A stretch of 64,000 nt of DNA from a virus. Positions within the stretch are counted from its first letter, which is position 1. The number at the start of each line of letters is the position of its first letter. The notes below the pieces were generated by a model, which was not told the origin of the DNA, searched no databases, and saw only the letters and a program-made list of their open reading frames with translations. The position numbers were made by a program, and so were the translations under genes. Positions 442 to 61,120 of the stretch are shown piece after piece. The stretch spans positions 1-64,000 of the IMG/VR virus record IMGVR_UViG_3300014836_000691; one strand, 5' to 3'.

Positions 442-646
442 CTATTTTCTGCAAGTTTGTAGAAACCTCGCTGGTATCCCAATGGGTATCGTCCTGTGTC
501 CAAAACAGGGAAAGAGACGGCGGGAGTGGAACGCTCCGACTGCAAACCCAAGATGTTCGTGCGGACAGCGTGGCTTGGAATAAGACGGAAGTCCCAAGGC
601 ACAAAGGCACGAAAGAATGAGGTCGTTGACAAGATACAACTTCAGT

Positions 647-7263: not shown

Positions 7264-7309
7264 TTAGAGTTGCATTAGGCAATTCGCACGGCACAACACA
7301 CTTACCACT

Positions 7310-7657
7310 ATGTCTACACCCAAGTTCGCAATCATTATCGAAGTCAAGAATGGGAAGCCTGTCGCTACCGCCTTTAACAAGACGGACGCAGGTGATGCAG
7401 TCGAGCAGTTCATCAAACTGCGTGACGAAGGCAAGGAAGCCTATCTGTTCCAGCACCCTGTCGCTGACAAGCGTTCCAAGAGCAAGGAGCAGATGGATGC
7501 TACCTCCAAGGCTACCAATCAGTCTGAGTCTAAGCGTGAAGTCTCCAAGGCAGAGACGGCTAAGACCAAGGCTAAGGCTAATGAGGCAAAGGCTGAAAAG
7601 CCTGTCGCCAAGAACAGCATTGAAGGCGTTTCGATGGAAGCCGTAGACATTCAATAA
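7310..7657 (+). CDS. Hypothetical head-associated protein with K/A/E-rich tail
   Basis: ORF with high-expression codon usage in the head module. Confidence 0.6.
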   Translation: MSTPKFAIIIEVKNGKPVATAFNKTDAGDAVEQFIKLRDEGKEAYLFQHPVADKRSKSKEQMDATSKATNQSESKREVSKAETAKTKAKANEAKAEKPVAKNSIEGVSMEAVDIQ

Positions 7658-7833: not shown

Positions 7834-7858
7834 TTTGGGCTGAAAGTTGACTCGAAAC

Positions 7859-7884
7859 AAGGGGTGCTAAAACACCCCTTTTTA
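7859..7884 (+). terminator. Rho-independent terminator overlapping the TTGAC-N6-CAA motif
   Basis: AAGGGGTG-CTAAAA-CACCCCTT-TTT. Confidence 0.7.
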
Positions 7885-7893
7885 TTTTACCAA

Positions 7894-16125: not shown

Positions 16126-16761
16126 ATGGACGGTCGATTTTTGACCGCCTTCGTCCTTCCTCCAGACAGGAAGATAATGGGATACAAGTTGAAGCCTTAC
16201 ACGCTTCGACATTCCCTTTATCTTATTGCTCTGCAACATCCTATGGTTGTGGGTAAGGAGAAGGAAACAAGTCCGCAGGACTTGCTCGCCTTCCTTCGTA
16301 TCTGCTCATCTGAGCGTCCAGACCTAGCCTTTCGGAAGCCGACTATTATGGACATTTGGAGGATAGCCAGAATGCAATCCGACATACGATACTTTTACAG
16401 GGCTATGAAGGACATACTTATTTATATGAATGAGTCGTGTTCGTCACCGCTGGTTTACACCAAGGAGGAGGGTAAGGAGAAAAAGAAGGACGGCATTCCT
16501 AGCCCTCTAGTTATGGCTACCGCCCTAATGTCCAGACTGCATATGACACCAGAAAGGGCTTGGAATACGCCTGTTGGACAGGCGGTCTGGTATCTTACCG
16601 CATTTTCAGCATCCGAAGGGGCAGACATTAAGATTCTGTCTACGGAAGATGAGCAACGAGCAGACTTTGAAAAGGAGTTCCTTCAGAAGTTACAAGCCGA
16701 AGAGTTGGCAAAACTCAAAGAGAAGATGCGTAACAAAATGAACAAGAAAGGAGGCGACTAA
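16126..16761 (+). CDS. Tail assembly chaperone (putative)
   Basis: Synteny; C-terminal MTPERAWNTP.G.A.W pattern. Confidence 0.55.
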   Translation: MDGRFLTAFVLPPDRKIMGYKLKPYTLRHSLYLIALQHPMVVGKEKETSPQDLLAFLRICSSERPDLAFRKPTIMDIWRIARMQSDIRYFYRAMKDILIYMNESCSSPLVYTKEEGKEKKKDGIPSPLVMATALMSRLHMTPERAWNTPVGQAVWYLTAFSASEGADIKILSTEDEQRADFEKEFLQKLQAEELAKLKEKMRNKMNKKGGD

Positions 16762-25845: not shown

Positions 25846-27080
25846 TGTCCAATACCAGACTAGTTCTTTGGATAGAGCCTAGCGAAAACCAACTCTATGC
25901 CGACTGGCAGGTGAACAACTTTGCTGAAGCCCCTGTGTTCAAACAGGGTGATGATGTAGAAGTTGAACTGCATTTAGTCCGAAGGCTTGCCAGCCAGTTT
26001 GGTATTATGGAGGAAATCCCCTTCCCAGCGGGGTGCAATATTCGCTTGGCGATTGGTCAGCAGGACAAGAGTCCGACTGCTGGAACATTTACCGTGGCGT
26101 ATGATGGGGAAGTGGCTACGCTGAACTATAACTCGACTGCCCTTGAGGTTCAGACGGCTCTCAATTCGCTATCTACAATCACAGCCGCTGGTGGAGTTGT
26201 GGTGAGCAAGGTTAACACGGTCACCTACAAGGTGGATTTCAACACCGCTGGCGAGAACGAGGCATTACTGGTTAACACCTCCGCACTTGTTCCCCCATCA
26301 GCCAATAAACTAGTCACGCTTCGTGCTGGCTCGTTAAGTCTTTCTGGCTCTTACCTAATCAAAGTCTACCGTTCTCCGTGTGTCTGGCAAGACACTTGGA
26401 CTGACTTAGATACCCCCCAAGCAGTCATTACTGAACTGACTCCAAACAGGGTAAAGCGTGTCACCATATCGCCTCGCCCCAAGGGTGGAAGTTGGTTACT
26501 AACTAGCACCGCCAATATCACCCCGAAGGTCTTAGATGCTGGGGACGAGGACGACCTCGCAACCTACTGGTCTGAGAGCATAACCCATTCCTTCTCCCCC
26601 ACCGCCAAGGATTCCTCGTTCCTCTACGGACAGGACGAGAGCGTATCCTCAAACGCCATCGGAAAGAGTCGCTACCAAGCGACAGCAAGCCTTGTTGATG
26701 CCTACACTTGGGACTTCCAACTCAGAGATGATTATGACATTCCAGTTGGCTACGCATTTCCCTTCACGGTGGACGATGGCGGTCTGATTGGTTTTAACGG
26801 CAAGACGGCATCCCTCAACCTTAACACGGTAGAAATCGACTATTTGCTGAATGGGGCATCGTCTACGACTGCCGTTATCGAAATCGAACTGGATGTTGGC
26901 GGCAAGAAGTGGACGGTATTGCAAAGGACTTGCACTATCATCAACGATTTAATCGACCAAGAAACCTTCTCTCCTATCTCCTACCAAAACGCCGTCCAAG
27001 AAGCACCTATTGACGGAAAGCAATATGTGCGTAGGGATGGAAACTGGTATGAACTCGAAATTGATGGAGGAACTTTCTAA
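25845..27080 (+). CDS. Tail protein paralogous to the N-terminal part of 23326-25845
   Basis: Shared LVLW, QGD...ELH.V, PTAGTF, LNLNT, I.NDLID and EAPIDG motifs. Confidence 0.7.
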   Translation: MSNTRLVLWIEPSENQLYADWQVNNFAEAPVFKQGDDVEVELHLVRRLASQFGIMEEIPFPAGCNIRLAIGQQDKSPTAGTFTVAYDGEVATLNYNSTALEVQTALNSLSTITAAGGVVVSKVNTVTYKVDFNTAGENEALLVNTSALVPPSANKLVTLRAGSLSLSGSYLIKVYRSPCVWQDTWTDLDTPQAVITELTPNRVKRVTISPRPKGGSWLLTSTANITPKVLDAGDEDDLATYWSESITHSFSPTAKDSSFLYGQDESVSSNAIGKSRYQATASLVDAYTWDFQLRDDYDIPVGYAFPFTVDDGGLIGFNGKTASLNLNTVEIDYLLNGASSTTAVIEIELDVGGKKWTVLQRTCTIINDLIDQETFSPISYQNAVQEAPIDGKQYVRRDGNWYELEIDGGTF

Positions 27081-29360: not shown

Positions 29361-30161
29361 ATGCGGAGGTTGTCCACACTACTCACAGGGTTACTCACAG
29401 TCCTATTGGTAGGATGCGGCACACCCAAGAAGGAACTCCCTCCACTCCCAGAGCCAGCGGTGACGAATGGGCTTGCTGGTGCGGAGCAAGTCTTGGATAA
29501 GGCTACGGCAGAACGCCTGTCGAAAGCAGCCGCATCTGTCGGGGTCGCACACATCCTTGCGAAGAAGAACCCTCAATCTAAAAACAATGATGTGTTAGTT
29601 AACGAACTTGGACTAGCCAAGTCTCTGACTGGACACGCAGAACCGAAAGACTGGGATGAAGCCAAGAAGCGTTCTGAAGCCGCCATCGGCGGTGACCTTA
29701 CCCAAGTCTATGCCAAACTCAATGAGGAAGCCGTTGCCCTTCGCCAAAAACTGGCAGAAGCGGACAAAAAATACGAAACGGAGAAGGCGAAAAAACAAGC
29801 GGAATACGAAGCCAAACTCAAAGAGAGCGACCAGAAGATTAAGCAGGAGCAGGAAATGCGTAGGCTGGAAGCGGAAGAAGCAAGGAAAGACAAGTTCCTT
29901 TACTTGGGGGGACTTGTTTGCCTTATTGCGGCGGGTATCTTCGTCTTCGGTTCTAAGCAAGATGGGGTTGAAGCCTTCCTTGCTGGCTCGGCAATAGCCT
30001 CCCTTGGCTTCATTTGGGGACACCCCTACTTTATCTACATTGTCGGAGCGTTTGCGTTCTTGGCTTTTATCAAGGTCGCTCTCTTGCTCTTCAAGCATAA
30101 GAAGAAGAAGTCAGACTGCACGAATGGGGCATCCCAAGAGGTCAAGGAGGAGGGTAAGTGA
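29361..30161 (+). CDS. Lipoprotein with coiled coil and C-terminal TM segments (spanin-like)
   Basis: Lipobox LLVG-C; helical middle; hydrophobic C-terminal segments. Confidence 0.55.
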   Translation: MRRLSTLLTGLLTVLLVGCGTPKKELPPLPEPAVTNGLAGAEQVLDKATAERLSKAAASVGVAHILAKKNPQSKNNDVLVNELGLAKSLTGHAEPKDWDEAKKRSEAAIGGDLTQVYAKLNEEAVALRQKLAEADKKYETEKAKKQAEYEAKLKESDQKIKQEQEMRRLEAEEARKDKFLYLGGLVCLIAAGIFVFGSKQDGVEAFLAGSAIASLGFIWGHPYFIYIVGAFAFLAFIKVALLLFKHKKKKSDCTNGASQEVKEEGK

Positions 30162-30526
30162 GTCCTCCCCCTCCAACGCAACTTAACCCGAACGACCTGC
30201 CTCCAGAGGTCAAAGATGGACTTCTTGGTGCTATCCTAGGCGGGCTGGGGATGGCGGCTCGTATGCTTCTCTCCACAGAGCCTGTGTCATTAGGCTTTGT
30301 TGTTCGCCGTTTCTTAGCCGCCAGCATTACGGCTATGTTTGTGGGACTGGCTACCAAAGACCACTTCCAATCCACAGGACTCTGGTTAGCCACCGCAGGT
30401 GGTAGCGGTTACGCCGCACCAGAAGTCACCGATTACCTCATACGCTATGTAAAGGCTAAGGGGGAAGCAAAAATCAAAGAGGCAAAAGGTCGTGTCAAAA
30501 CGAAATCCAAAAGAGGACGCAAATAA
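30158..30526 (+). CDS. Holin (putative)
   Basis: 2-3 hydrophobic segments, GGSGY.A.E motif, highly basic C-terminus. Confidence 0.65.
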   Translation: MSPPPPTQLNPNDLPPEVKDGLLGAILGGLGMAARMLLSTEPVSLGFVVRRFLAASITAMFVGLATKDHFQSTGLWLATAGGSGYAAPEVTDYLIRYVKAKGEAKIKEAKGRVKTKSKRGRK

Positions 30527-30818
30527 CAACCTGCTGTGGATAATCTCCACGCTTATCTTTATCTCTCTCATCTCTTCTGGCTTCACCGCCTACGCCTGTG
30601 ATTATGTCCTCAGTTCTTTCCAGAACAGCAATACGATGGTTCTGCTTATCACCGATGCTGGCCTCAAGTCTGATGATGCTAATCTTGAACGCCAACTTAC
30701 TACGGCTACTAAATCGCTTATTTTTCTTCGGGATATCGCTCTTGCGGTCTTAGTCGGAACGGCTATGGTGATTACCACGATGGGGCTTAGGGTGTGGAAA
30801 TCCAAGTCCCAAGGTTGA
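30492..30818 (+). CDS. Two-TM membrane protein, lysis cluster
   Basis: Two hydrophobic helices. Confidence 0.55.
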   Translation: MSKRNPKEDANNNLLWIISTLIFISLISSGFTAYACDYVLSSFQNSNTMVLLITDAGLKSDDANLERQLTTATKSLIFLRDIALAVLVGTAMVITTMGLRVWKSKSQG

Positions 30819-30832
30819 CACGCCCCAAAAGG

Positions 30833-30918
30833 CGTTAGTCGTTTGTGTGTTGTGTCGTGTAAACGGACTAGTCGTGCAGTCCTGTTATGTAGCCGCCGCA
30901 GGGCGGCTGCTTTTTTTT
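30833..30918 (+). ncRNA. Putative small RNA with GU-rich loop
   Basis: TTGAC-N6-CAA at 30814; hairpin TAGTCGTTT/AAACGGACTA; terminator at 3' end; no credible ORF. Confidence 0.5.
30889..30918 (+). terminator. Rho-independent terminator
   Basis: GTAGCCGCC-GCAG-GGCGGCTGC-T8. Confidence 0.85.
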
Positions 30919-31234
30919 AACGCTTCAAGATTCCCCAAGCCACCTCATTATGCTGGTGCGAGGCTTCGATGTGAACCTTGGCGTGAGCCAGCGAACCAGT
31001 CCGCAGGGCTTCCGTTAAGTCCATCTCTGCCTTGGTCAGACGAGCGAACAGAACATCCTGCTGGTCGTCCGAGGGGGCGAACTTGTTGGCGTTCTCCAAA
31101 GCCCATCTAGCATTGTCTGCTTCTTCGGTGATTGCGTAAAGGTTCTGTAGAGCCTTCTTCGCAAGTTCAGCACTCTCAGCCGCCTGTGCGACTGCGATGT
31201 ATGCCTCCTTGATTTGGGCTGATGTTATTTTCAT
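30917..31234 (-). CDS. Hypothetical helical protein
   Basis: ORF with plausible composition. Confidence 0.6.
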   Translation of the reverse strand: MKITSAQIKEAYIAVAQAAESAELAKKALQNLYAITEEADNARWALENANKFAPSDDQQDVLFARLTKAEMDLTEALRTGSLAHAKVHIEASHQHNEVAWGILKR

Positions 31235-31278
31235 ACGCTTGGGTATTTGTCAACTTGTAGCCGTTTTGTTCAGTCGAG

Positions 31279-31671
31279 TCAAGCCCTTGGTTTGGCAACC
31301 AGACTCTGTGCTTCCTCTACGGACATTTGGCAGTCCTGCATATACCCATTCGTCTTACGCCCTGTGATTAGCATATCACCATAGATAGGAGTAAGCGTCC
31401 CTGCGATACGGCAGAAGGAAACAGGCAGGGGGAAATACTCGTTGAACTGGTCGTCAGAGAACCACAGACGCTCCCCATTCCCTACTTCGTGGCAGTCTAG
31501 GTCTTCATACTCTCCCTTGTTCTTGAACCAGCGTAGCACGAACCTCTGTGCTTGGTCTTCCTTCATCCAGCGGGTGTCGATGATTACTTCCTCAGCCGTC
31601 TTGGTTTCCCCATTGATGTAGATACACCTAGTGGTCTTGAGTTCGTGTGCGGGTCGTCCTCCTTTGGGCAT
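31279..31671 (-). CDS. Hypothetical protein
   Basis: ACGACT-ATG leader. Confidence 0.6.
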   Translation of the reverse strand: MPKGGRPAHELKTTRCIYINGETKTAEEVIIDTRWMKEDQAQRFVLRWFKNKGEYEDLDCHEVGNGERLWFSDDQFNEYFPLPVSFCRIAGTLTPIYGDMLITGRKTNGYMQDCQMSVEEAQSLVAKPRA

Positions 31672-31682
31672 AGTCGTAAGGG

Positions 31683-32012
31683 TTACTTGTTCTGGGCGAG
31701 CCAGAGTTCAATCGCTTCCGTGAGGGCTTGGCGAAGGGTCGTGTCGTTGACCTTGATAGTGTTCTTGAACTCAGCCACAAGGTCGTTGGGCAGAGGGCTA
31801 GCAACCGTGGTAAGGTTGTTTCGCTTCTTCCACTCCAGTTGGCGAAGGGAGTTCACGGTGGAGGCTTCGCCCGCATCAGCCCTAGACTTTGCGGTTAGCC
31901 CATTAGCCATCCTAGCCCCTTCGTCTTTACCTTTGCTGTAGCCCGCCATATAGGAGTGCTGGCTAGCGTAGAGTCGGGATTCGGGATTTTTGCGGAGGTC
32001 GATTTTTTCCAT
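31683..32012 (-). CDS. Ribbon-helix-helix-like protein
   Basis: C-terminal VASPLPNDLVAEFK...LRQALTEAIELW. Confidence 0.5.
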   Translation of the reverse strand: MEKIDLRKNPESRLYASQHSYMAGYSKGKDEGARMANGLTAKSRADAGEASTVNSLRQLEWKKRNNLTTVASPLPNDLVAEFKNTIKVNDTTLRQALTEAIELWLAQNK

Positions 32013-32057
32013 AGGTCGTGTCTATGCTTTATGTTCTATCCGAAGGGTGAACATATG

Positions 32058-32744
32058 TCAAGCATCAATTTCTCCAATGGCTTCCTTACGCTCTTTGGTG
32101 AGTCGATAGACAGTCCAACTTGAAACATCGTAGTCCTCAGAAATCTCTTTGACGGAGCATCCGTCTACCTCACGGAGACGAATCCACTCGTCTACGACTT
32201 CTGGCTTAACTTGGTTATGCCCATTCACAAACTCGTAAATGTCCTGCACCTTGGCAATCTTACCCCAAGCCCGCCCGCCGAGGTTAGGGATAGGCGAGCC
32301 AGCCTTACGGCAACGCTTGATGTTGCCCCAGATAGTTGCCACAGGCAGACCGTAGCGTTCAGAGAGGGTGTCCACGCCATCCCCATTCACAAACTGATGA
32401 AGCAGGGTGTCGAACATCTGACCGAACTCCTTGGTTTGCTGTTCTTCGTGCGTAGCAGGAACAACCCAATACTTGTAACCACTAGCGGGGTCAAACTTGT
32501 TGGACTTAAAGCCCCCATTCTTAGCAGGGATAACCAGTCCCACTCTACGCAGGTAGCGTTTGACGCTATCGAACGACTTTTCGTTCACGCCGTGCATACG
32601 GCAAGCCTCCGAGTGCATCTTACCGTTGTCGATAATATCAATCAGAACAAGGTCGTAAGCCTTGGCTCGCTCTTGATTGAAGCCCCGCCAATCCTGCAAG
32701 GCAAGGGGAGGCATTTGGAAGTATTTGTATTGTGTGTCGTGCAT
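32058..32744 (-). CDS. Multi-HTH DNA-binding protein
   Basis: HTH-like units (EACRMHGVN; LSERYGLP; ISEDYDVSSWTVYRL). Confidence 0.6.
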   Translation of the reverse strand: MHDTQYKYFQMPPLALQDWRGFNQERAKAYDLVLIDIIDNGKMHSEACRMHGVNEKSFDSVKRYLRRVGLVIPAKNGGFKSNKFDPASGYKYWVVPATHEEQQTKEFGQMFDTLLHQFVNGDGVDTLSERYGLPVATIWGNIKRCRKAGSPIPNLGGRAWGKIAKVQDIYEFVNGHNQVKPEVVDEWIRLREVDGCSVKEISEDYDVSSWTVYRLTKERKEAIGEIDA

Positions 32745-33076
32745 CGGGTTATGTTATGAATGGGTAGTGAACGCCTGTCAACTTAATTCTTGTGGCACAG
32801 ATGCCACCAGCCGTTTTTGGCTACACACCAGCGAGCGAGAGCCACGACCATCCGTCCACCCTTCCCATCGTCCGCACAGACGACAGCAGAGGGCGACAGG
32901 GGCATCAGCCCCTTCGGGGTGAGCGTGTGAACCTTTCCTTGGAAACCAAGGACGACAGGCATCGGGTTGAATAGTCTAAGGTGCTTCATTACCCATTACT
33001 CTATCACAAACATTTGTCTTTGCAACAACTATTTCTGAACGCTTGTATTTTTTATCGTTGACTTCTCAACCTGCTT

Positions 33077-38253: not shown

Positions 38254-38293
38254 GCGTTGACAAAACCTCAATTTTAAGGCTCTATTGCTAAAT

Positions 38294-44436: not shown

Positions 44437-44528
44437 GTCGTTGCCCATCAGTCGTTTGTAAAAGTTTTGCCTTTGGTGTTGACTTATGTCCACCAATCAG
44501 TAAAACATTAGGAACAGACACGACCTAT

Positions 44529-45955: not shown

Positions 45956-46634
45956 TCTCCGCAAACTTGCGGACTTTAACCTCCGCTAATCTCCGCACAA
46001 TCTCCACACGATGAAATCAATCCTAATGCAAGAAGGCGACCACAAGTTCACCTTGGAGGTCTTTGACGACAACGGTGTTTGGCTGATGGGCATCAAGCAT
46101 ACGCCCGAAGCCGACTTCACCTCTGACCTTGAACGCCAAGCGTCTCAATGGAAGAAGACCGACCCAGACATTTACGAAGCCATCCGAAAGGAAATCGCAA
46201 AGGCTTACTTCACTCTCCACAAACACTATGAGTAATAATATGAAGAAAATCACAATCAAGGACTGCACCACAAAGGGCGGTCGAGTCTATCACGATGGCT
46301 GTGTCGCCGTCTTGGTTTCAAGAGGCTACGGTGCTGGCTGGTATACTTGGAATCAAAACACCCCATCTATGCTCTTCTGCCCGAAGATGGTCGAAGCCGT
46401 CCTCGATGAAAAGTCCACAGACGAATTGGTAGACCTCGCCAACGCTCTCTACCCAGATGCCTACGCTGGAGGCGTTGACAGCCTTGATGTTCAATGGGTC
46501 AAAGAGGGAGGCAAGTTCCGAGTCCACGAATACGATGGAGCAGAGAGCATCTACCTTCTGGAAGAAGAAAAGTGGTTTGTCGCTTGACAACCTCTTGCCT
46601 ATCTGACAACCTGCTATCCAACAACAAAACGACT

Positions 46635-46919
46635 ATGCCCGAATACACCAAAGAAGAACACGAAGAAGTCAGCCAGATGCTCGCCAGCCAACTCATCGAA
46701 GAGAAGGCTGAATGGGACGAACAGGCGAAGTATATCGCCAACCTTCTGGAAGACCTCCTCGAAACCAAAGTGCCTCTCAAGGTTCTCGCTGAACCCGACA
46801 TTGATGCGTTCGGTAAGATTATGCATAAGTTAGACCACCTCTACCACGCCCGCCGTGCCGTCCTGTTCACCGAAAACGAAATCAAGATGCACAAGAAGGT
46901 CGTCCCTACGGACGCTTAA
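46635..46919 (+). CDS. Hypothetical protein
   Basis: AAACGACT-ATG leader. Confidence 0.55.
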   Translation: MPEYTKEEHEEVSQMLASQLIEEKAEWDEQAKYIANLLEDLLETKVPLKVLAEPDIDAFGKIMHKLDHLYHARRAVLFTENEIKMHKKVVPTDA

Positions 46920-46951
46920 CACCCTCTCACTAACACAACACAACTACGACT

Positions 46952-47566
46952 ATGACGACTCAACCCGAACTGGACTTGGTTAACGGACTCAAGACCCTCA
47001 CGCCTGTTAAGCAGGAAGATGGGGAGTTGGCTCTGGAGGTCTGTCAGACCTTCAACAACCCTGCGTCCAAGTGCCGTATCACGAAGATTGAACTCCGTAG
47101 CCAACCTTGGAGCAAGAAGGGTCGCACGACCCTTAGCATCTGGATTGACCATAAGGACAAGGAGAAGAACAGCGTTATCGCCCAGTATGCGGCTCGCCAT
47201 CTCGACTCGATGGACGGACGGATGCAGGAGTATCGCTCGCAGTTCCCCGCCATCGTGAAGACGCTGTGGGCGAATGGGCAACTGGATGCAAGCAAGTGGC
47301 AGGGCAAGTCCCGCCCGACCATCACGCTAGCCGATATGGACACCGCCAAGGGCTTCCGCTGGGGGCAGAAGGCTGGTTGCCGATGCGGATGCTCGCCCGC
47401 CTTCTATGTGCCTCAATGGGTCGAAGAGCAGTTGCCCCTCTGGGTCAACCATATCAGCGTCACCTTGGAGGAGGTCGAGGAGGTCGCCCTTGCGGTCAAC
47501 CCAGACCGCCTCAAGTCGGTCACGCAGAACTTCCCCTCGCTGGTCGGTCAGCAAATCACGGCTTGA
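46952..47566 (+). CDS. Hypothetical protein with W.QKAGC.CGCSP motif
   Basis: Cys motif; AC-rich leader. Confidence 0.6.
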   Translation: MTTQPELDLVNGLKTLTPVKQEDGELALEVCQTFNNPASKCRITKIELRSQPWSKKGRTTLSIWIDHKDKEKNSVIAQYAARHLDSMDGRMQEYRSQFPAIVKTLWANGQLDASKWQGKSRPTITLADMDTAKGFRWGQKAGCRCGCSPAFYVPQWVEEQLPLWVNHISVTLEEVEEVALAVNPDRLKSVTQNFPSLVGQQITA

Positions 47567-49189: not shown

Positions 49190-49879
49190 ATGGCTACTCG
49201 CTCTTCTTCTCAAGGACTCGCCTCTGATGCCGTCGGAGGTGGTTACACCCCCAAGTTTAAAGGATGGGAGGCAGGTCTTAACGCTGCTCACAATCGTAGC
49301 ATTGAAAAGGCTGACGAAAGATATGAAAAGGCACAAGACAACCGCTACGATGCGGCTGGCTCTGAGGATGAACATATGAAATCGAAGAGCATCGCCAATT
49401 ACGCATACAATCTTGCGGTAGATGCCTCTAGACTGAACGAAAAGGCAGAAAACGACTACATCCGTGGTGATGGGTCTACAGATGCGATTAAGGGAAGAGT
49501 CTTCAAGGATGCCTTAGACCAACTTTTGGGTTCTGACTTAAAGGATAAAGACGGCCCTAGAACCTTCGATTCCGAACGGCAAACGCTTATGTCTGCTTAC
49601 AGACGAAGTGCTGGTAGTGCAACTGACGAACAGGTTGAAACGGCATTCAATGATGAGGTGCTTACTGTCGTCCAAAGATTTGCTACTCAAATTGATGCTG
49701 TCTTAACGGCGAGGAAGCCTAGTGCAGATGCGTATCAAGATTTCAGAGGGGCTGTTAGTGCTTCTTGGGATGAATCTTTTGACAATGACTACAACGAAGG
49801 CGTAGTCCAAGCCGCATTAAGCATTATCGAAAAGACTTTCAAACTTACTAACGCAAAACTCACAGGAGAAGCACTCTAA
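49190..49879 (+). CDS. MATRS-leader protein
   Basis: MATRSSSQGLASD. Confidence 0.8.
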   Translation: MATRSSSQGLASDAVGGGYTPKFKGWEAGLNAAHNRSIEKADERYEKAQDNRYDAAGSEDEHMKSKSIANYAYNLAVDASRLNEKAENDYIRGDGSTDAIKGRVFKDALDQLLGSDLKDKDGPRTFDSERQTLMSAYRRSAGSATDEQVETAFNDEVLTVVQRFATQIDAVLTARKPSADAYQDFRGAVSASWDESFDNDYNEGVVQAALSIIEKTFKLTNAKLTGEAL

Positions 49880-49882
49880 CCT

Positions 49883-50683
49883 ATGGCTACTCGTTCCAAC
49901 AAGCAGGGCTTAGCCTCTGATATTTCAAACTACGAAAAAAGCGATGCCTCGTCTGCCCTTATGGGCAACTCGCTCTCTGCTGGAACTCAAGCCGCTGAGT
50001 TGCTGAGTGCCGACTCCAGTTCCAGAAGATATCGTGAGTCTCTGAGAGAGGCTGAGGTTGAAGCCGAAAACGGTAGCGAGTTTGAATACCTTGCCACCAC
50101 CGCCCTTAGAGATTACATCAAGGAGCAGGGGCTTGAGAACCAACTGTCGTCTGAAACAAAGGCGAAGATTAAAAAGTTTGATGAGATGGTTGAGAAGGGA
50201 CAAATGTCTTCTTCTACTGGTGGCTTAGAGCCTAGAGGCTTTGACAGGGTTGGAAACAACTTCTCCGTTTTTTCCAGAGATGTGGCTGACTCAATCAAAC
50301 TGGATACCCGCCACTTTATGAACAAGTCGCTCAGCAAATTGACGGGCTACAAGGAAGATGAGGCTAAGGGCTACGACCCTGTTGAAAGCCTTGGTAGGTT
50401 CTACCTTGGCAAGCGTGTTGCCCTTGTCGCCACAAGAGACGATGGCGTGAAGGCTGTTATTATGGATGAGAGCAGAGGCGAATCCAAGTTCAAGAAGGGC
50501 GATATCGTTGGCAACGCTGATTCCGGCCCTAACAACAGAGGCTGGACTGGCTCGGTTGTGAAAGTCATAAACTTTACCCCGCAAGACGCTCGGTTAGTTA
50601 TGGACAAATACAAGGCTGAGTGGTTTACTGACCCCTATCCCACCGTCAGAGACGGCAAGACAACCTTAGATACTACAGACTAA
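49883..50683 (+). CDS. MATRS-leader protein
   Basis: MATRSNKQGLASD. Confidence 0.8.
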   Translation: MATRSNKQGLASDISNYEKSDASSALMGNSLSAGTQAAELLSADSSSRRYRESLREAEVEAENGSEFEYLATTALRDYIKEQGLENQLSSETKAKIKKFDEMVEKGQMSSSTGGLEPRGFDRVGNNFSVFSRDVADSIKLDTRHFMNKSLSKLTGYKEDEAKGYDPVESLGRFYLGKRVALVATRDDGVKAVIMDESRGESKFKKGDIVGNADSGPNNRGWTGSVVKVINFTPQDARLVMDKYKAEWFTDPYPTVRDGKTTLDTTD

Positions 50684-50686
50684 TTT

Positions 50687-51400
50687 ATGGCAACTCGCTC
50701 TTCCAACCAAGGCACAGCCGCTTCCCTCGGAAGCGATTACAACTATGCCCAGTCGCAAAGACTTGAAAATAGAACTAATGAGGTGTTCAATGCCGAAGAC
50801 TTCCCGAAGTCGGCTAACGCCCCTACGATGAAGGCTTACAAGAACATCGCCACGAACATCGCCAAGTTCAGATTTGAGGGCGTTCCTAACGATGCTGAGG
50901 CTATGGAGCGATTCTTGGGCGAATGGCCTGCCGTCTTGAAGAGCCTTCAGATGGTCAGCCCCGATTTAAAACCAGATGAGGCTTTGTTTGCCTTCGGAAA
51001 TATTAACAAGGAACTTGGCAACACGGTTCGTAATGTCGAGGGTGCTAAGAACGGACAAGTGGTTTATGTTGGCGACAACATCAAATACAACGCAGGCCCA
51101 AAGGGTTCTGGTCTTAGACAGGGCATCTCGACCAAAAAGGATGCTGTGGTTGTCGCACAGGCGACTTCTGCCAACGGAGATAAATGGGTCAAAGTTGTTT
51201 CCAACACTCGGTTTTATATCGAAGACGGCAGAGAGCAGTCTTCCTCCGTCCTGTGGATTAGCGACAAGGGACAGGCTTTAACAAGCACCCTTGAAGCCGA
51301 AAAACTTAATCTTGAGGGTGATGGCAAGAAGACTCCTACGGCTGAGTTTGTTCAGTCCTTCTTTGAGTTCCATAAGCCGAAGGTTTGGCAAATCGGTTGA
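50687..51400 (+). CDS. MATRS-leader protein
   Basis: MATRSSNQGTAASLGSD. Confidence 0.8.
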   Translation: MATRSSNQGTAASLGSDYNYAQSQRLENRTNEVFNAEDFPKSANAPTMKAYKNIATNIAKFRFEGVPNDAEAMERFLGEWPAVLKSLQMVSPDLKPDEALFAFGNINKELGNTVRNVEGAKNGQVVYVGDNIKYNAGPKGSGLRQGISTKKDAVVVAQATSANGDKWVKVVSNTRFYIEDGREQSSSVLWISDKGQALTSTLEAEKLNLEGDGKKTPTAEFVQSFFEFHKPKVWQIG

Positions 51401-51408
51401 AAAACTGA

Positions 51409-52251
51409 ATGGCTACGAGAAGCAAGTCGAGTGGCAAACTTGAGTCGGACGATGATAAGTTGACCCGCTTGCTTGCGGGCGATGTTGAAGCCATCTTGGA
51501 GAAGAGTCTGAAGGGTGGCAATCTTTCGGACAAGCAACTGGCAAAGTATTTTGGCGTTTCCGAAGCGGAAATTGCCAAGGCTAAGTCCGACTTGGAGGCT
51601 TGGAAGAAGCAGAATGAGGGAAAGCAAGTGCCTCCGATGCCCGATGCGGGACAAGATTTTAATAATCTTTTAGACGGACAGGGCGTGGTTGCCGTTTGGA
51701 ACGAGTTATACGGTAAGACGCATAATCCAGATGGGACTCCAAAGACGGCAGGTTCTCAACCCGCTGGACAAACCCCTGCGACAGCCCCGCAAACCAATCC
51801 AGTCACACAGGCTACCCAGACTAAGGGTCAGCCTACAACCCCAGCCCAAGCAGCCGCCCAAGCCCAACAACAGGCTTCTGGTGCTAAGCCCGCCAAAGCG
51901 GGCAAGGGTGGTAAAGGCGGTAAGGGTGGTAAAGGTGATGAGGCTCAAGCGAAGGGTGAAAAGAAGTCCATCCCTTGGTATATGAAGCGAGGCTCTGGCT
52001 TTGCTCGTCTTGTTTTTGGCGGTGGTCGTGGTTCTGTTGACCCGCTTTATTCGACCTACGGAACATCTGGCGGTGGCTCTGGTGTCATTGCTGGCGGTGC
52101 GGCTTCCCTTCCAGAATCCGTCCAAGCCCTTATTGACAAGGGCAGAAGGCGTAGGGGCGGTTCTCCGTCCAAACCCTCCGCACCCTCCGCACCCGCTTCT
52201 GGTGGTGGTGGTGGTGGCTCAGCCCCTTCGGGCGGTGGCGGTTCTAAGTAA
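51409..52251 (+). CDS. MATRS-leader protein, G/P/Q low-complexity
   Basis: MATRSKSSGKLESD. Confidence 0.8.
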   Translation: MATRSKSSGKLESDDDKLTRLLAGDVEAILEKSLKGGNLSDKQLAKYFGVSEAEIAKAKSDLEAWKKQNEGKQVPPMPDAGQDFNNLLDGQGVVAVWNELYGKTHNPDGTPKTAGSQPAGQTPATAPQTNPVTQATQTKGQPTTPAQAAAQAQQQASGAKPAKAGKGGKGGKGGKGDEAQAKGEKKSIPWYMKRGSGFARLVFGGGRGSVDPLYSTYGTSGGGSGVIAGGAASLPESVQALIDKGRRRRGGSPSKPSAPSAPASGGGGGGSAPSGGGGSK

Positions 52252-52288
52252 GCCCCATTAGTCCTGTTGACAACGAGCAACATTACAA

Positions 52289-52702
52289 ATGGAAGCCTGT
52301 TCGGAAGCCACGGAACATATCCTTAACCTTACCCACACGGTGGCTAGGTTGAAGCAACTTGCCAGCACGGAGCAAATCCAGCGTGGCAAGATTATCGACA
52401 TTGGAGAAGATATGCTGAAGGCTTGGATGAACGGCGAACCGTATTCCGAAGTCTATCACGCTAGATGGGCTGAGGCAACTGACCCGAAGTCGCTCGAAAA
52501 GAAGTTCAAGCAAATCAACAAAGAGTTCGACAGGAAAGAACAGGAACAGCGTGAGCAGATGCAGATGACTGCTGAACAGAAGGCTAATCAGCAGAAGGAA
52601 AAGGAAGCAGAGGCGATTAACGCCGATGCCAAACTTCAGAAGGCTAAGAACTCGCTCAAGGACGCTGAGGACAAGGCTAACAAGAAGAAAGAGGGCAAGT
52701 AA
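52289..52702 (+). CDS. Hypothetical coiled-coil protein
   Basis: TTGAC-N6-CAA at 52267. Confidence 0.6.
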   Translation: MEACSEATEHILNLTHTVARLKQLASTEQIQRGKIIDIGEDMLKAWMNGEPYSEVYHARWAEATDPKSLEKKFKQINKEFDRKEQEQREQMQMTAEQKANQQKEKEAEAINADAKLQKAKNSLKDAEDKANKKKEGK

Positions 52703-52704
52703 TC

Positions 52705-53628
52705 GTGGCTACAAGAGGCACATCCGCATCAATGGGGTCGGCGGTAACTCTTGCTTCTGATGCCAAATCGCTAGGCAAGGTGGTTGGCGATTACACCAAG
52801 TCCAAGGACTTGTTTGACCAATTTATTGCTAGGCAGGAAAAGATTGAGGAACGCAAACTGAACAAGGGCGAAGTCCTTAAAATCTTAGGCAACATCCTAG
52901 AGGATATCGACAATCACGAAGATAGGATGGAAAGATGGGAAAAGGAACTGAGAGACACCAAGTTTTACAACGATTACACCCGCAAGGAGGGTAGAGGGGG
53001 TAAGGACATTCCCGAAAGCGAATGGAAGCCCGCCAAGCCCCTCCCGACTAAGCCAGAACCGCTTTCTGGGACTGTTGCAGAGGTGGCTGATAAACTTAAT
53101 GAGTTCTTGGGTCGAGTCGCACACCACCAGTCTAACGATTCATCTTTCGCCAAGAATCCAGACGCTTTGGTTGAGGCTTTCAACGACCTCCCAGAAGTGA
53201 TTAAGCCGTTCGTGTTAGCCCCTAGGGGGCTGATTAAGAGGCTGTATAGGGGTGATGAGGCTGGCAAGTCTGAGATTGTGCAGGGTAGAGGGGTGGCATC
53301 CTTTGCTACCACGCCTCGAAATGTAGGCTTCTGGGGTAGGTATGTTTATAAAGGCTCAGATATAGAGTCATTTGCTGGCATCATCGACACAGGTCGTATC
53401 GTCAAGAACTTCGACTCTTACTCCAAGATTGGCGAACTGCTTGGCACTATCGCTAGAAACTCTATCGAAATAGGGGATGATGAGGACGAGAAGATTGTGT
53501 TTGGCATTAAGTGGAAGAAGAATGTCGGTGACCGAGATTGGATGGACAAAAACGGCAGAAAATCCGACACTTTTAAGGAAAAATACTACGAAAATCCAAG
53601 GTTAAAGGAAAACAGGTTTGACGACTGA
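52705..53628 (+). CDS. MATR-leader protein, ADP-ribosyltransferase-like
   Basis: MATRGTSASMGSAVTLASD; LYRG...VASFAT...DEDEKIV. Confidence 0.65.
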   Translation: MATRGTSASMGSAVTLASDAKSLGKVVGDYTKSKDLFDQFIARQEKIEERKLNKGEVLKILGNILEDIDNHEDRMERWEKELRDTKFYNDYTRKEGRGGKDIPESEWKPAKPLPTKPEPLSGTVAEVADKLNEFLGRVAHHQSNDSSFAKNPDALVEAFNDLPEVIKPFVLAPRGLIKRLYRGDEAGKSEIVQGRGVASFATTPRNVGFWGRYVYKGSDIESFAGIIDTGRIVKNFDSYSKIGELLGTIARNSIEIGDDEDEKIVFGIKWKKNVGDRDWMDKNGRKSDTFKEKYYENPRLKENRFDD

Positions 53629-53634
53629 TGAATG

Positions 53635-53661
53635 GGGGCGTGAAAAACGCCCCTTCTTTTT
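53635..53661 (+). terminator. Rho-independent terminator
   Basis: GGGGCG-TGAAAAA-CGCCCC-TTCTTTTT. Confidence 0.75.
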
Positions 53662-53701
53662 GCTCGTTGACAAACATTCAAAGATAACCACTATTTTAGT
53701 T

Positions 53702-54442
53702 ATGGCAACTCGCTCAACCAATGCTGGATTAGGTTCTGATTTTAGACCTAGAGGCTCTTTTTCCTACGGAACAGGAATCGCCGCACAGGTCGAGGCTGGC
53801 ATCGACAAGGCACACAAGAACCGTGTTGGTGCAGATTCTTACGCTAAGTCCCTTTCGGACGATGCTCTTGCTAAGGCGTGGGAGGCTACAAGCAGAGAGT
53901 ATGATAGAATGTCTAGGGGTGCGGACGAGTTTGATAAGGAGAACCCCGAAGCGGGCAACTTTGGCTCTGCTGACTCGTATGTAAGAATGGGTGCGGACAG
54001 TTACCACGACACCTACTACAAGCCAATCATCAATGAACTTTCTCGCAGATGGCTCAACACAGACGGAAAGCCCTTCTGGTTGGAATCTAGCGAACAGAAG
54101 AAATACAAAAGCCAAGGGGTTCAATACAGCGGTGAAAAACCTTGGGATTTACTACAGTATTATATGAACTATGAGGTGTCCCCTTCCGTTTCAATTAGTA
54201 TGCGAAGAGATGTTTCCAGAGGGTCTGGAAGCAAGGTTGATTTTAGCGGAGTCAGCGATGAAATTATCGCTAGGTCTGTCAAGATAGCCGAACAGGGGCT
54301 TGATGAGATTCGTAGAGAGTCGATTGAGCGTGATAAAAAGATTGGCAAAGACAACTATTACGAATCCAATTACCCCAAGGATTGGAAAGAGAACATCCTC
54401 GACCCTCTGGTTAACGAACTTAACAGACGCAAAAACAAATAA
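53702..54442 (+). CDS. MATRS-leader protein
   Basis: MATRSTNAGLGSD; internal duplication (D..LA.A ... P+.NEL.RR twice). Confidence 0.8.
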   Translation: MATRSTNAGLGSDFRPRGSFSYGTGIAAQVEAGIDKAHKNRVGADSYAKSLSDDALAKAWEATSREYDRMSRGADEFDKENPEAGNFGSADSYVRMGADSYHDTYYKPIINELSRRWLNTDGKPFWLESSEQKKYKSQGVQYSGEKPWDLLQYYMNYEVSPSVSISMRRDVSRGSGSKVDFSGVSDEIIARSVKIAEQGLDEIRRESIERDKKIGKDNYYESNYPKDWKENILDPLVNELNRRKNK

Positions 54443-54449
54443 TTAATTT

Positions 54450-55202
54450 ATGGCTACTCGCTCTCCAAAGGCTTCCACAGCCGCAGAACTTGGTTCGGAC
54501 ATTCCTCGTAAGTCCGGCCCTGAGAACTTCAATGAGAACATTGAATATATGAAGAAGCGTTACTTTGGCGAAAACCAAGGTGCTTCCGCAAAGAAGGCTA
54601 CCGCTATCGTGGAAGGCATTGATGTTTCGTCTAAGACGAATGTTGACCTTAACCCCCTTCTTTACGCTAAGGCTATTACCAGAGTCCTTATGGACGACCT
54701 TGAGACGAAGAGTGGCAGAAATGTAGAACCTAATGGGCTAGTGGAAGTTGACGCTGAAGCGATGAAATACAATGTTGATATGATTTACACTAGCAGAATC
54801 CACAATCAACTGGCTTCCAGCCTTGCTTTCAAGTTAACCACCGAACTTTTCAATACCGTTGGTGGCAATCAAAAGGAGGACAGTCCGTTTGCTATTGCTC
54901 CTTACAAGGAGAATGGGGTTAGAGTTGACCCGATGCAGATGTATCAAGACATTAGAAGCGTCCTTATGCAGTATGCGTCCGTCCACAGGGTTGTCAACAA
55001 CCTTGGCTTTGACGAGGGAGAGGACTCCGATAACAATCCAGTCCAGTTTGCCAGAGATACGATGCAACGCATCTACCAAGAGGTGAACAACTACGGTCAA
55101 TACGGTAAGGGTCAATTTGCTGAGATGTTCGATAAGGCTATGACTTCGTTCAAGTCCACACTTGAAAGCCCCGACTTCGACAGGAGAATCGGCAACGCTT
55201 AA
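54450..55202 (+). CDS. MATRS-leader protein
   Basis: MATRSPKASTAAELGSD. Confidence 0.8.
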   Translation: MATRSPKASTAAELGSDIPRKSGPENFNENIEYMKKRYFGENQGASAKKATAIVEGIDVSSKTNVDLNPLLYAKAITRVLMDDLETKSGRNVEPNGLVEVDAEAMKYNVDMIYTSRIHNQLASSLAFKLTTELFNTVGGNQKEDSPFAIAPYKENGVRVDPMQMYQDIRSVLMQYASVHRVVNNLGFDEGEDSDNNPVQFARDTMQRIYQEVNNYGQYGKGQFAEMFDKAMTSFKSTLESPDFDRRIGNA

Positions 55203-55211
55203 TGCAACTTT

Positions 55212-55904
55212 ATGGCAACTCGTTCCAATAAACAGGGTCTGGCTTCCGATGTTTCCTCGACTGGTCGAGGTGGCTTCTCCGCTGGTCGTGACCAAGCCGA
55301 ATTGCTTGGCTCTATCACTCAAGCAAATGGGGCTAAGGACAAGGAAAGGACAAACATTTTCCGTGAAATTAGGGCTGGTCAAAGCGACAGAGTGTTTGAA
55401 AGCGTGACTTTCCCACAGGCGGTCACAAAACTGCTTGGCGACAACCTTGCATTTGAGGACTACGGCTACATTCTACAGTCTTTAAACTCTAGCGAAAGAA
55501 TGGGAAGTGGCACAGGCTATCAAGACAACGCATTAAATAGCGATGATTTTGAAGTAATCCTCAAACAAAGAGACAAATCTCTTGGACTGGTTGAAAACTT
55601 GCTCGATTATAACAACGGAAACATTGGTTATTCCGTTATTACGGATGCGGGAGCGTTTCCAAAGGGAGGCAATCCCAACAACGAGGCATCTGCCAAGGTC
55701 AGAAATGCCTTGTTTGATATGTATGAGGCTGGACAAAAAATGGAAAAGGCTATTAAAACCTACGAAGAGGTCAGAGATATGTCGGAAAGCCAGAAACTCA
55801 GAAGGGCAGACGGAACAGCCCTTTGGGGCAGGGCAAGAAAAGACCTTGCAAACGCATTAATTGATTTCAGAGAGGCAAGAAACTCCGTTAAGGAACAAGC
55901 GTAA
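55212..55904 (+). CDS. MATRS-leader protein
   Basis: MATRSNKQGLASD. Confidence 0.8.
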   Translation: MATRSNKQGLASDVSSTGRGGFSAGRDQAELLGSITQANGAKDKERTNIFREIRAGQSDRVFESVTFPQAVTKLLGDNLAFEDYGYILQSLNSSERMGSGTGYQDNALNSDDFEVILKQRDKSLGLVENLLDYNNGNIGYSVITDAGAFPKGGNPNNEASAKVRNALFDMYEAGQKMEKAIKTYEEVRDMSESQKLRRADGTALWGRARKDLANALIDFREARNSVKEQA

Positions 55905-55908
55905 TTTT

Positions 55909-56523
55909 ATGGCAACTCGTTCTAATAAGCAAAGTTTGGCATCTGATTCCGGCCCTTACGGTGGGGCTGAGTGGCGGGCTATGGAGGCTAAGCGTAGCGG
56001 TAGCGTTCCAGATTTCTCCGTTGCTGATATTCGTGAAATCGTAAGATTTTCCGATAGGCGTGAACAGGATAATTTTGAGGGGGTTGCCAACGAAATCAAA
56101 AACACCACCGCAAAAACAAGCCAAGATTTGCTGGATAATTTCTTGCATAGCGATTTTGCCAACAAGCAGTATAATTACCGTAAGGGATTCGGGGCCCTTG
56201 ATTCCTACGATGTTTTCAACGGAACACAGGAAAACTACAATGTCCTTCTGGCATACAGGGACTTGCTTGCAAATGGGAACAGCAACTCTGGGACTGCGTT
56301 TGTGAAGTCCAAGGAAGAGATTGCTCAACTTGACGAAGCAATACTCAACTATGCTGAAAAAGCACGAACCGCCTATGAAGCCCTTGAGTATGGTCGTAGC
56401 GGAACTGAAGGCTCTGCCGAAGCACTTGAAAACTATAACAGGGCTGTTGCCTATGTGAGAAATACCTTTGCTGACATTATTCTCCCAACTAAGCGTGGCC
56501 CTAGAGTTGGCAGAGTGGAATAA
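55909..56523 (+). CDS. MATRS-leader protein
   Basis: MATRSNKQSLASD. Confidence 0.8.
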   Translation: MATRSNKQSLASDSGPYGGAEWRAMEAKRSGSVPDFSVADIREIVRFSDRREQDNFEGVANEIKNTTAKTSQDLLDNFLHSDFANKQYNYRKGFGALDSYDVFNGTQENYNVLLAYRDLLANGNSNSGTAFVKSKEEIAQLDEAILNYAEKARTAYEALEYGRSGTEGSAEALENYNRAVAYVRNTFADIILPTKRGPRVGRVE

Positions 56524-56526
56524 CCT

Positions 56527-57276
56527 ATGGCTACTCGCTCAACAGTCCAAGGTCTTCAGAGCGACCTTTCTAGAAAACTCAGAGACAAGGCTTCTGCACT
56601 TAGAGAAGAAAATGAGAAGGAAAAGCAGGAGGTAGCCAAGACCGAGCAGGAATACAACGATACGGTTGAACAGGAGCGTATTCGCATTGAGGAAGAAGTG
56701 ATGAAGGAGATGAAAGACCGTAAGTGGTCTGTTGATAGAGAAGCCCAAGAAAAGCGAGAAGCGGAAGCGAAACTGGCTGAAGAACAGGCAGTCGCAGAGG
56801 AAAAGCGTGAGCGTGAATTGAAATACAAATGGGAGGGGATGGTGGAGGGCATCGAAAGCAAGATTAAGAAAAACAATAATAAGATTAAGGAAGACTTCCT
56901 TACATTTGGAAGTAAAAACCTCCTTAATAAAGAATTAAAGTTCCCTATCGCTTGGAGTGATACTTTTATGAGAAAAGTTATGAAGGATGTTCCCGATGAA
57001 ATAAGGAGTGCTGTGTCCCACTTATTTGAATCAACTTCTGAAGACCGCTTTGATTTTTCTAAGGCTTCTCAAATTGCTTACGCTAATGGGTCTGGAAAAT
57101 CAACGAGCCTTGACGAGCGTATTGAAAACCTTTCCGAGAAGGATGTTCCTTCGGCAGAGGAACACAAAGCAGGTCTTAAGAGCGTCCAAACCTTTGAAAA
57201 GTTCGTTCGTAAGATGCTTGCGTCCACCAAGGAGAAGGATTTGGCTTGGGACGAGGACGGCAATTACAGAGACTAA
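56527..57276 (+). CDS. MATRS-leader protein with charged coiled coil
   Basis: MATRSTVQGLQSD. Confidence 0.8.
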   Translation: MATRSTVQGLQSDLSRKLRDKASALREENEKEKQEVAKTEQEYNDTVEQERIRIEEEVMKEMKDRKWSVDREAQEKREAEAKLAEEQAVAEEKRERELKYKWEGMVEGIESKIKKNNNKIKEDFLTFGSKNLLNKELKFPIAWSDTFMRKVMKDVPDEIRSAVSHLFESTSEDRFDFSKASQIAYANGSGKSTSLDERIENLSEKDVPSAEEHKAGLKSVQTFEKFVRKMLASTKEKDLAWDEDGNYRD

Positions 57277-57280
57277 GTAA

Positions 57281-57562
57281 ATGATGGGCAACAAGACGGT
57301 AGAGCGTCTAAGAGGTATGAACAACAGCGAGTTGAACGCCGTTAGGCGTTCTCTTTCTGAGGTTGTAGCCGAACTCAAACTGGTAGAAAAGAACCTTCGG
57401 GTTTTGGTTAACCAGAACACCCTTGACTTGACACCCACCCTTCTCTCTCATCAAGATACTGGCAAACAAGAACGGCAACACGCCGCCGAGCAGACCTACG
57501 AGGGCGTTCTAAGAGTCCGAGAGCAGGTCAAGGCACTCCTTATTGACAATCCACAACAATAA
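57281..57562 (+). CDS. Hypothetical protein
   Basis: ORF in array lacking the leader. Confidence 0.5.
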   Translation: MMGNKTVERLRGMNNSELNAVRRSLSEVVAELKLVEKNLRVLVNQNTLDLTPTLLSHQDTGKQERQHAAEQTYEGVLRVREQVKALLIDNPQQ

Positions 57563-57569
57563 ATACACA

Positions 57570-57707
57570 ATGAGCAAAAAGAAAGACAACGGCGACAAGA
57601 CTCGCTATGTGATTGACGACACCTCTATCACAAACATCCAAAAAATCCTCAAGGCTATCCAAGAGGGCGTTAAGTCCCCGCCCAAGCCCGACAAGCCCAA
57701 GAAGTAA
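57570..57707 (+). CDS. Small basic protein (45 aa, not in ORF track)
   Basis: MSKKKDNGDKTRYVIDD...; TTGAC-N6-CAA at 57543. Confidence 0.5.
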   Translation: MSKKKDNGDKTRYVIDDTSITNIQKILKAIQEGVKSPPKPDKPKK

Positions 57708-57741
57708 GCGAGGAGCGTCTGGTTGACTAAGCACCAAAAAG

Positions 57742-58809: not shown

Positions 58810-58812
58810 TAA

Positions 58813-59679: not shown

Positions 59680-59740
59680 GCACCTCATTGGTGCTTCTTT
59701 GCTCTATTGACAAGAACCAAAGGGCAAACCAGCATTCTTT

Positions 59741-60469: not shown

Positions 60470-60472
60470 CCT

Positions 60473-61117: not shown

Positions 61118-61120
61118 TTT

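Follow-up and report, generated by a model that had tools for sequence, protein, structure and literature searches.

The window analysed here is a 64,000-nt stretch of DNA, bases 1-64000 of the 73,999-base IMG/VR record IMGVR_UViG_3300014836_000691 (72% complete according to CheckV), and the genome represented by this record is referred to below as G000, with gene starts taken from a simple codon-usage caller of our own. The plus-strand genes encode a portal protein, a protease and the major head protein, followed by tail genes, and end in a membrane-protein pair (30158..30526 and 30492..30818); a short minus-strand block (30917..32744) converges on these genes of the lysis end. The element under study is placed after the last gene of the lysis cassette, at the convergent junction, where it fills the 98-nt gap separating the two convergent stop codons. 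A helix-turn-helix protein is encoded nearby (32058..32744), with weak matches to Mor, sigma-70 region 4 and helix-turn-helix families that all fall below the Pfam cut-offs, and neither PHROGs nor Pfam provided a function for the flanking small proteins or for gene 7310, which is discussed below. No deposited phage resembling the region was recovered when the surrounding 4-5.5 kb were searched against phage databases for near as well as distant matches.

The only mechanical open reading frame in the stretch (30847..31110, 87 aa, GTG start) runs antisense into the convergent gene 30917..31234 and was not picked by the codon-usage caller, and no open reading frame within the element is common to the relatives. 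The absence of a credible open reading frame, as stated in the original prediction for this locus, therefore holds. Elsewhere in the window, approximately 20 genes (e.g. 5294, 7894, 41650, 42381 and 49190-62919) open with the near-identical codons ATGGC(T/A)AC(T/C)CG, forming a large paralogous set with the N-terminal peptide M-A-T-R in common.

The features of the element are collected in Table 1. Its first bases overlap the upstream coding sequence, such that the GTTGAC at 30814-30819 contains the TGA stop codon (30816-30818) of the open reading frame 30492..30818, and the CCAAAAGG that follows lies within a small hairpin (ACGCC/GGCGT, 30820-30835). Positions 30836-30855, which read TAGTCGTTTGTGTGTTGTGT, belong to a GU-rich tract (30834-30860). 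No other intergenic tract in the 74-kb record reaches this GT content (at least 20 of 22 bases) unless it is the back of a leader. The sequence AGTCGTTTGT, identical to the start of this tract, is also present at 44447-44460 on the plus strand, in the gap before gene 44529. At the 3' end, the plus strand combines a GC-rich hairpin with a U-run, as in Rho-independent terminators, and this arrangement is kept in the closest relatives; the hairpin has no U-run after it on the minus strand, so that the terminator acts on transcripts of the plus strand only. The strong terminator that had been noted at this position is thus borne out, whereas the hairpin proposed along with it (TAGTCGTTT/AAACGGACTA) is possible but is neither the minimum-free-energy structure of the isolated RNA nor conserved.

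Table 1. Positions of the element, of its predicted targets in the window and of the structured leader RNA of related genomes (window coordinates unless a genome is named).
Feature	Position	Strand	Basis or remark
Promoter-like motif GTTGACA-N4-CCAAAAGG	30814..30835	+	Read from sequence; putative promoter function
GU-rich tract, proposed seed, GTTAGTCGTTTGTGTGTTGTGTCGTGT	30834..30860	+	Unpaired in consensus fold; complementarity statistics
16-nt part of the seed, continuous helix with the gene 7310 leader (14 Watson-Crick and 2 G-U pairs)	30845..30860	+	Duplex computation
Hairpin GGACU / loop AGUCGUGC / AGUCC, possible second seed in the loop	30865..30882	+	Consensus fold
Intrinsic terminator: 9-bp GC-rich stem (30889-30897 with 30902-30910), loop GCAG, U8 (30911-30918)	30889..30918	+	Sequence and folds
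Predicted target: leader of gene 7310..7657 (115 aa, no family match), segment ending 8 nt before ATG	7286..7301	+	-33.6 kcal/mol, second of 127
Predicted target: leader of gene 46952..47566	46933..46952	+	17/20 match
9-nt match AAACGACTA at the start of gene 46635..46919	46627..46635	+	Also 15/20 in shuffle comparison
Structured leader RNA, ~130 nt	G001 ~24930-24760; G002 ~36795-36640; G004 ~35890-35700; G005 ~48190-48000	-	Loci L062, L066, L207, L211

None of the 4227 families of Rfam 15 is significant in this region: eight weak matches were obtained for 30760-30960 at E<=5, the best at E 0.17 with 15 bits against the 52 needed, and across the window only 11 tRNAs pass the gathering threshold. 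The anatomy of the element is that of a small RNA gene, with a predicted 5' seed, a 3' scaffold and a terminator. A layout that echoes it (motif, short RNA, terminator) is present at window 7846-7893, where a TTGAC motif is directly followed by a terminator-like hairpin and U-run (AAGGGGTG..CACCCCTTTTT) and then by the start of an M-A-T-R gene.

To collect relatives, protein-anchored scans were made with the neighbouring holin-like protein, yielding 33 viral loci, 24 metagenome loci and one contig from a metagenome-assembled genome (MAG). The anatomy is conserved, with the same layout found in 17 loci representing approximately ten distinct sequences from related freshwater phage contigs. In 11 of these loci the stop codon of the 108-aa gene lies inside GTTGAC and is followed by the GU tract, the hairpins and a U-run, and in the six others the whole unit, motif included, is located approximately 250-500 nt further on, behind an inserted minus-strand gene. 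The idea that the unit is absent where the stop codon occurs without GTTGAC was therefore ruled out, the unit being displaced downstream. Because motif, tract and hairpins stay intact when displaced from the stop codon, the unit travels as a whole. A pattern scan of viral contigs for TTGTGT..CGTGTAAA was unspecific, returning at least 120 stretches with, among the matches listed, one near GTTGAC in an unrelated context, and a scan anchored on the alignment of the 108-aa protein gave no new element sequences. One of the collected contigs, the 32-kb L069 (RGCW01000008.1), which carries the holin-like gene and the small-RNA unit, was assigned to a MAG with the title Candidatus Aquidulcis, which gives a weak hint as to the host unless the binning is at fault; two protein queries found no orthologue of gene 7310 in that MAG.

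The unit carries two or three hairpins, and a U-run (at least three T on the same strand) is present in every related locus printed through the last hairpin. There are three 3' scaffolds among the relatives, and the stems covary within two of them: 5 of the 14 consensus pairs are changed on both sides among the four closest sequences, as are 6 of 21 among the six sequences of the type-C scaffold, which also contains invariant G-U pairs that can form on the plus strand only. Covariation in relatives, which had been named as a check on the original prediction, is thus found in the 3' stems. The consensus of the four closest sequences keeps the terminator and the GGACU-loop-AGUCC hairpin (30865-30882), in which four of the five consensus pairs have changes on both sides and the loop AGTCGTG is invariant; the same loop, AGUCGUG, also occurs in the terminator hairpin of G002 (locus L004). 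The GU tract, present in all 17 loci, is unpaired in both consensus folds (four closest sequences and six of type C), while in a single-sequence fold the isolated RNA can partly self-pair, GU tract included.

The TTGAC motif precedes the GU tract in 17 of 17 related loci, with CAA(A)G-like bases next in most. Many genes of the window have TTGAC-N-CAAAG in front of them too, frequently at just 14-23 nt from the ATG and with no -10 box, and a promoter role for the TTGAC..CAAAGG motif is a guess. The 'late' timing originally assigned to the element depends on just this reading of a motif with no recognisable -10 box, and so stays presumptive. Two other occurrences were observed. At window 38256-38293, TTGACA is found 36 nt before the first base of the 11-tRNA array, a spacing that fits a classical -35 box, unlike that of most other copies, and in G001 (46170-46118, minus strand) the 5' leader of an 80-aa gene contains a second TTGACA motif accompanied by a GU-rich tract (GGGTTGTGTTAGTGTGTGTGTCC), in this case not before a terminator.

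Four RNA-labelled runs were compared over 29400-32800 as assembled contigs, from which no ends, strand or level are readable. The region is covered in metatranscriptome X15, by two adjoining 151-nt contigs with perfect matches (30773-30923 and 30925-31075) and a third piece (31751-31907); X16 and X19 contain diverged relatives that may be DNA, and X22 contains nothing. The X15 contigs start 41 nt upstream of the motif and run past the terminator, and are thus as compatible with RNA from read-through, or with carried-over DNA, as with a small RNA.

In G000 and in the two relatives that were fully fetched (G001 and G002), start codons follow G-poor, AC-rich sequence ending in ..ACT or ..CCT, often beginning directly after the upstream stop codon, and no Shine-Dalgarno motif was found before the start codons of these three genomes, which suggests a host capable of initiating translation without a Shine-Dalgarno sequence. 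A GU-rich RNA is complementary to such leaders in general, making composition-matched controls essential. The energies reported here ignore accessibility, a GU-rich RNA pairs promiscuously, and G-U-tolerant helix searches of whole genomes, which gave many spurious 14-18 bp matches for a GU-rich query, were used as leads only.

The originally reported complementarity of 30836-30855 to the gene 46952 leader, at 17 of 20 positions, was reproduced, and both 9-nt matches are present (AAACGACTA before gene 46635 and CACGACACA in the first codons of gene 32744). Against the 127 start regions of G000, 17/20 was reached by 1 of 60 dinucleotide shuffles of 30834-30892; five start regions reach at least 15/20, compared with a shuffle mean of 0.78, and none of the 60 shuffles reached five. 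The mean duplex energy of the window tract over the 127 start regions was -14.06 as against -13.03 in 200 shuffles (fraction 0.035 as good; 0.02 of 100 shuffles in a second run), the ten best start regions averaged -25.1 as against -22.2 in shuffles (fraction 0.02), and for the single best the fraction was 0.005. An enrichment of targets over shuffled controls, a further check that had been proposed, is thus seen in the best matches of G000.

For the hairpin loop AGUCGUG, a complement of at least 6 nt occurs in 10 of the 127 start regions of G000, mostly in the ACGAC(C)TATG genes named in the original prediction, and in 6 of 54 in G002. Permuted loops averaged 2.1 in G000, where approximately 1% of 500 reached 10, with approximately 1% likewise for the G002 count, and the rate at start regions is about four times that in coding windows. 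Further, ACGAC is found at most 12 nt from the start in six start regions of G000 (1.3 expected) and in five of G002 (0.7 expected). These counts are a weak but consistent indication that the loop may be a second, multi-target short seed.

In G000 the exonuclease gene at 65948, which lies outside the window, has the highest-scoring leader of all start regions, followed by that of the head-module gene 7310. The exonuclease leader is not a conserved target, the orthologue in G001 being without an AC-rich leader. In contrast, the leaders orthologous to that of gene 7310 rank first in both relatives (gene 16417..16692, of 108 start regions in G001; gene 26056..26325, of 54 in G002), the three genes being orthologues with 46-52% amino-acid identity, the same place in the head module and no family match. 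The paired leader segment ends 8-10 nt before the ATG in all three genomes. Within a genome, seed and leader pair at -33.6 kcal/mol over an uninterrupted helix of 16 bp (G000), at -36.2 over 16 bp (G001) and at -29.2 over 11 bp (G002), compared with -17.5 to -28.3 kcal/mol and 8-12 bp for the cross-genome pairs, so that the 3x3 matrix, which represents three lineages only, is strongest on its diagonal. The sequences themselves differ by genome (ACGACAGACGA in G002 as against CAACACAC in G001), and because seeds and leaders differ between genomes yet own pairs match, complementarity has persisted through changes on both sides. Of 100 shuffles per genome, 0 (G000), 0 (G001) and 1 (G002) equalled the best start region of the genome itself, whereas the best start regions of none of the six cross-genome combinations of these genomes beat shuffles notably. 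In two further genomes, G004 and G005, no start region beats shuffles (fraction 0.75 of 100 with an equal or better minimum), and the prediction of the 7310-orthologue leader as a target there failed, the leader not being complementary. Directly upstream of the AC-rich target segment of the 7310-orthologue leaders of G001 (16693-16740) and G002 (26326-26372) there is a conserved palindrome, AACGC-TT-GCGTT, which may be a protein-binding site.

The relatives have a second partner, an intergenic site that the tract matches with its 5' half (15 nt in G001 and 17 of 18 nt in G002). This site sits in a conserved structured RNA, behind a sigma-70-like promoter and upstream of tRNA genes and the virion block. 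In this leader RNA, for which there is no Rfam match, CCGUAAG is invariant, one hairpin covaries and the AC-rich segment is variable; a closing stem and AAAAGAC are also present. As a test, G004 and G005 were compared too: both have this leader RNA, but with another AC segment, and it is their own tract, likewise different, that this segment matches. The energies of own tract and AC segment are -39.3, -36.2, -34.8 and -35.3 in G001, G002, G004 and G005, each reached by 0 of 300 shuffles, as against -22.2 to -30.9 across lineages, and the 5x4 matrix of tracts and leader RNAs is block-diagonal, again for three lineages only. Complementarity therefore tracks sequence change across genomes at this site as well, and 7 of 8 substitutions between the partners, read by eye from the printed pairs, keep a G-U pair. 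A pattern scan for the leader RNA returned 61 stretches, among them five family members, namely those of G001, G004 and G005 and of two new contigs (L237 and L275) with the same AC segment as G004, so that no new lineages were added; G002, with one base different, was missed by the pattern.

On the window's own contig the leader RNA is absent. Window 97-198 matches the DNA directly upstream of the leader RNA in G001 and G002, which places an RNA at window 204-444, unrelated in sequence, in the leader RNA's syntenic slot, and window 1-233 matches DNA approximately 700 nt downstream of the leader RNA in G004 and G005. The leader-RNA partner of this phage may thus lie beyond the contig start, or may have been replaced. 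Pairing of the window tract with the 204-444 RNA was considered and rejected (-17.0, with a fraction of 0.32 of 300 shuffles as good).

The interpretation to which these sequence comparisons give somewhat better than even odds is that the stretch encodes a base-pairing small non-coding RNA of approximately 85 nt, representing a new family in uncultured freshwater phages, with specific partners that change in step with it. The RNA would be made from the plus strand, with presumed ends directly after the TTGAC..CAAAGG motif and at the U8 terminator, and may in addition be present as the 3' end of the mRNA of the lysis cassette. The GU-rich tract on the 5' side of the small RNA would be an antisense seed for AC-rich, G-poor leaders without a Shine-Dalgarno sequence, approximately 9-25 nt upstream of the start codon, the candidate targets in G000 being foremost gene 7310 and the exonuclease gene 65948 and then gene 46952, and the loop AGUCGUG may be another, short seed, for leaders of the ACGAC(C)U-AUG type. 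By pairing, the RNA would either cover the site where ribosomes land or provide a substrate for RNase, and expression would presumably fall. More tentatively, and with some doubt, the small RNA from the end of the virion/lysis block may form a two-RNA circuit by pairing with both the structured leader RNA and the start region of the head gene.

The original prediction of a small RNA antisense to initiation regions therefore stands insofar as there is a conserved non-coding unit whose complementarity to leaders goes beyond composition, but not in its broader form, in which one late small RNA represses many early genes sharing an ACGAC(C)TATG leader, as a global switch from early to late expression. 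That form accommodates the five start regions with at least 15/20 matches and the enrichment of loop complements and of ACGAC near starts in G000 and G002, although matches of six nucleotides are weak. It is nevertheless quite unlikely, given that the mean over all start regions is only slightly better than in shuffles in G000 and no better in G001, G002, G004 and G005, that the partners which are conserved and covary are not early genes but a head-module gene's leader and, in the relatives, the structured leader RNA, and that AC-rich, G-poor leaders without a Shine-Dalgarno sequence are general in these phages, virion genes included, and so do not mark early genes. A purely passive 3' untranslated region, i.e. 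the end of the mRNA of the lysis cassette, folded into hairpins that stabilise it and a terminator, in which the tract is an inverted copy of a leader without a role in trans, would explain why the terminator is common to the element and the upstream operon, why the contig from the RNA library begins inside the upstream gene, and why the reverse complement of the tract is leader-like along its whole length, as far as an ACTAAC where leaders have ACTATG. Such a region would not, however, keep its complementarity to an orthologous leader and a leader RNA while both sides change, and the TTGAC motif moves with the tract when the unit leaves the stop codon, making this explanation unlikely.

The same changes in step could alternatively arise at the level of DNA, if the tract, the 7310 leader and the leader-RNA segment were copies of a site for a phage DNA-binding protein that change between genomes as heteroimmune operators do. 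Consistent with this, each genome has two or three copies of a 15-20 bp word that differs between genomes, and a helix-turn-helix protein gene is next door (32058..32744, with the sub-cut-off Pfam matches given above). The copies are not palindromic, though, and every one is oriented such that the transcribed strands are complementary; the retention of G-U pairs at 7 of 8 partner substitutions, as read by eye, and the location of both partners in RNAs with covarying stems likewise favour pairing between RNAs, and the operator explanation is considered improbable. The element might also function on the minus strand, either as the decayed leader of a lost gene or as a C-rich, G-poor Rho loading site that ends the convergent operon 30917..32744, which has no obvious intrinsic terminator because the terminator hairpin has no U-run in that direction; the reverse complement is leader-like and continues into an ACG in frame with the open reading frame 30602..30805. 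Nevertheless, no relative has an ATG after it, the G-U pairs of the covarying stems exist on the plus strand only, and the motif and U-run are oriented for the plus strand in all loci. Neither a rut site nor a dead leader need track the sequence of another locus, and a minus-strand function is very improbable indeed.

Taking the locus as a base-pairing small RNA, several known systems provide comparisons. In phage P4, the small CI immunity RNA base-pairs with the leader of an operon of the phage, at sequences complementary to it, which resembles the pairing of tract and structured leader RNA in G001, G002, G004 and G005; however, the leader under the control of CI is also the transcript from which CI is cut, and the outcome is premature termination, whereas the RNA described here would be encoded tens of kilobases from the leader. 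Small RNAs of bacteria that derive from 3' untranslated regions lie directly after a stop codon, have the terminator of the upstream mRNA in common and may have an internal promoter, and the window unit likewise directly follows a stop codon and has its terminator in common with the upstream mRNA, with a possible internal promoter overlapping the coding end. The c4 antisense RNA of phages P1 and P7 is a trans-acting phage RNA that pairs near the ribosome-binding region of a phage mRNA (PMC12197685). The likeness to c4 lies in exposed sequences that pair near that region of the mRNA, and in a recognition sequence and target that change together. The c4 RNA differs in lying upstream of its target in the same operon and controlling an antirepressor; the window unit comes after the lysis genes, its predicted targets are 16-35 kb away, and no antirepressor was identified. 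Moreover, the window unit has no sequence or structure match to c4 (Rfam), it has a leader in the head module and a leader RNA as conserved partners, its seed is GU-rich and the leaders have no Shine-Dalgarno sequence. The sar RNA of P22 and the OOP RNA of lambda are short phage antisense RNAs that lower the translation or stability of phage mRNA (PMC12197685), but these are encoded in cis on the opposite strand with full complementarity, unlike the window unit, which is encoded in trans and has partial matches of 11-20 nt. The candidate most likely works like the trans-acting c4 antisense RNAs while belonging to no described family, and none of the papers listed in a literature search on phage small RNAs describes such an RNA in its title or abstract opening.

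Phage regulatory RNAs are, to our knowledge, known from a handful of enterobacterial model phages and almost never from uncultured phages. The present element is a candidate phage small-RNA family found by comparison alone, with predicted partners that change in step in several genomes, and seed 30845-30860 together with leader 7286-7301 is a concrete pair. The element is of interest, too, for the regulation of start regions without a Shine-Dalgarno sequence, in that a GU-rich RNA could mask leaders that are AC-rich and G-poor. If the two-RNA circuit is real, the divergence of the seed together with its partners between lineages would represent a sequence-coded specificity or timing device, for which the partner leader RNA of the window phage would lie beyond the contig edge or have been replaced. 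Such a circuit would be comparable to the RNA-based immunity of P1/P7 or P4, the difference being that it would suit hosts whose translation begins on AC-rich leaders lacking a Shine-Dalgarno sequence.
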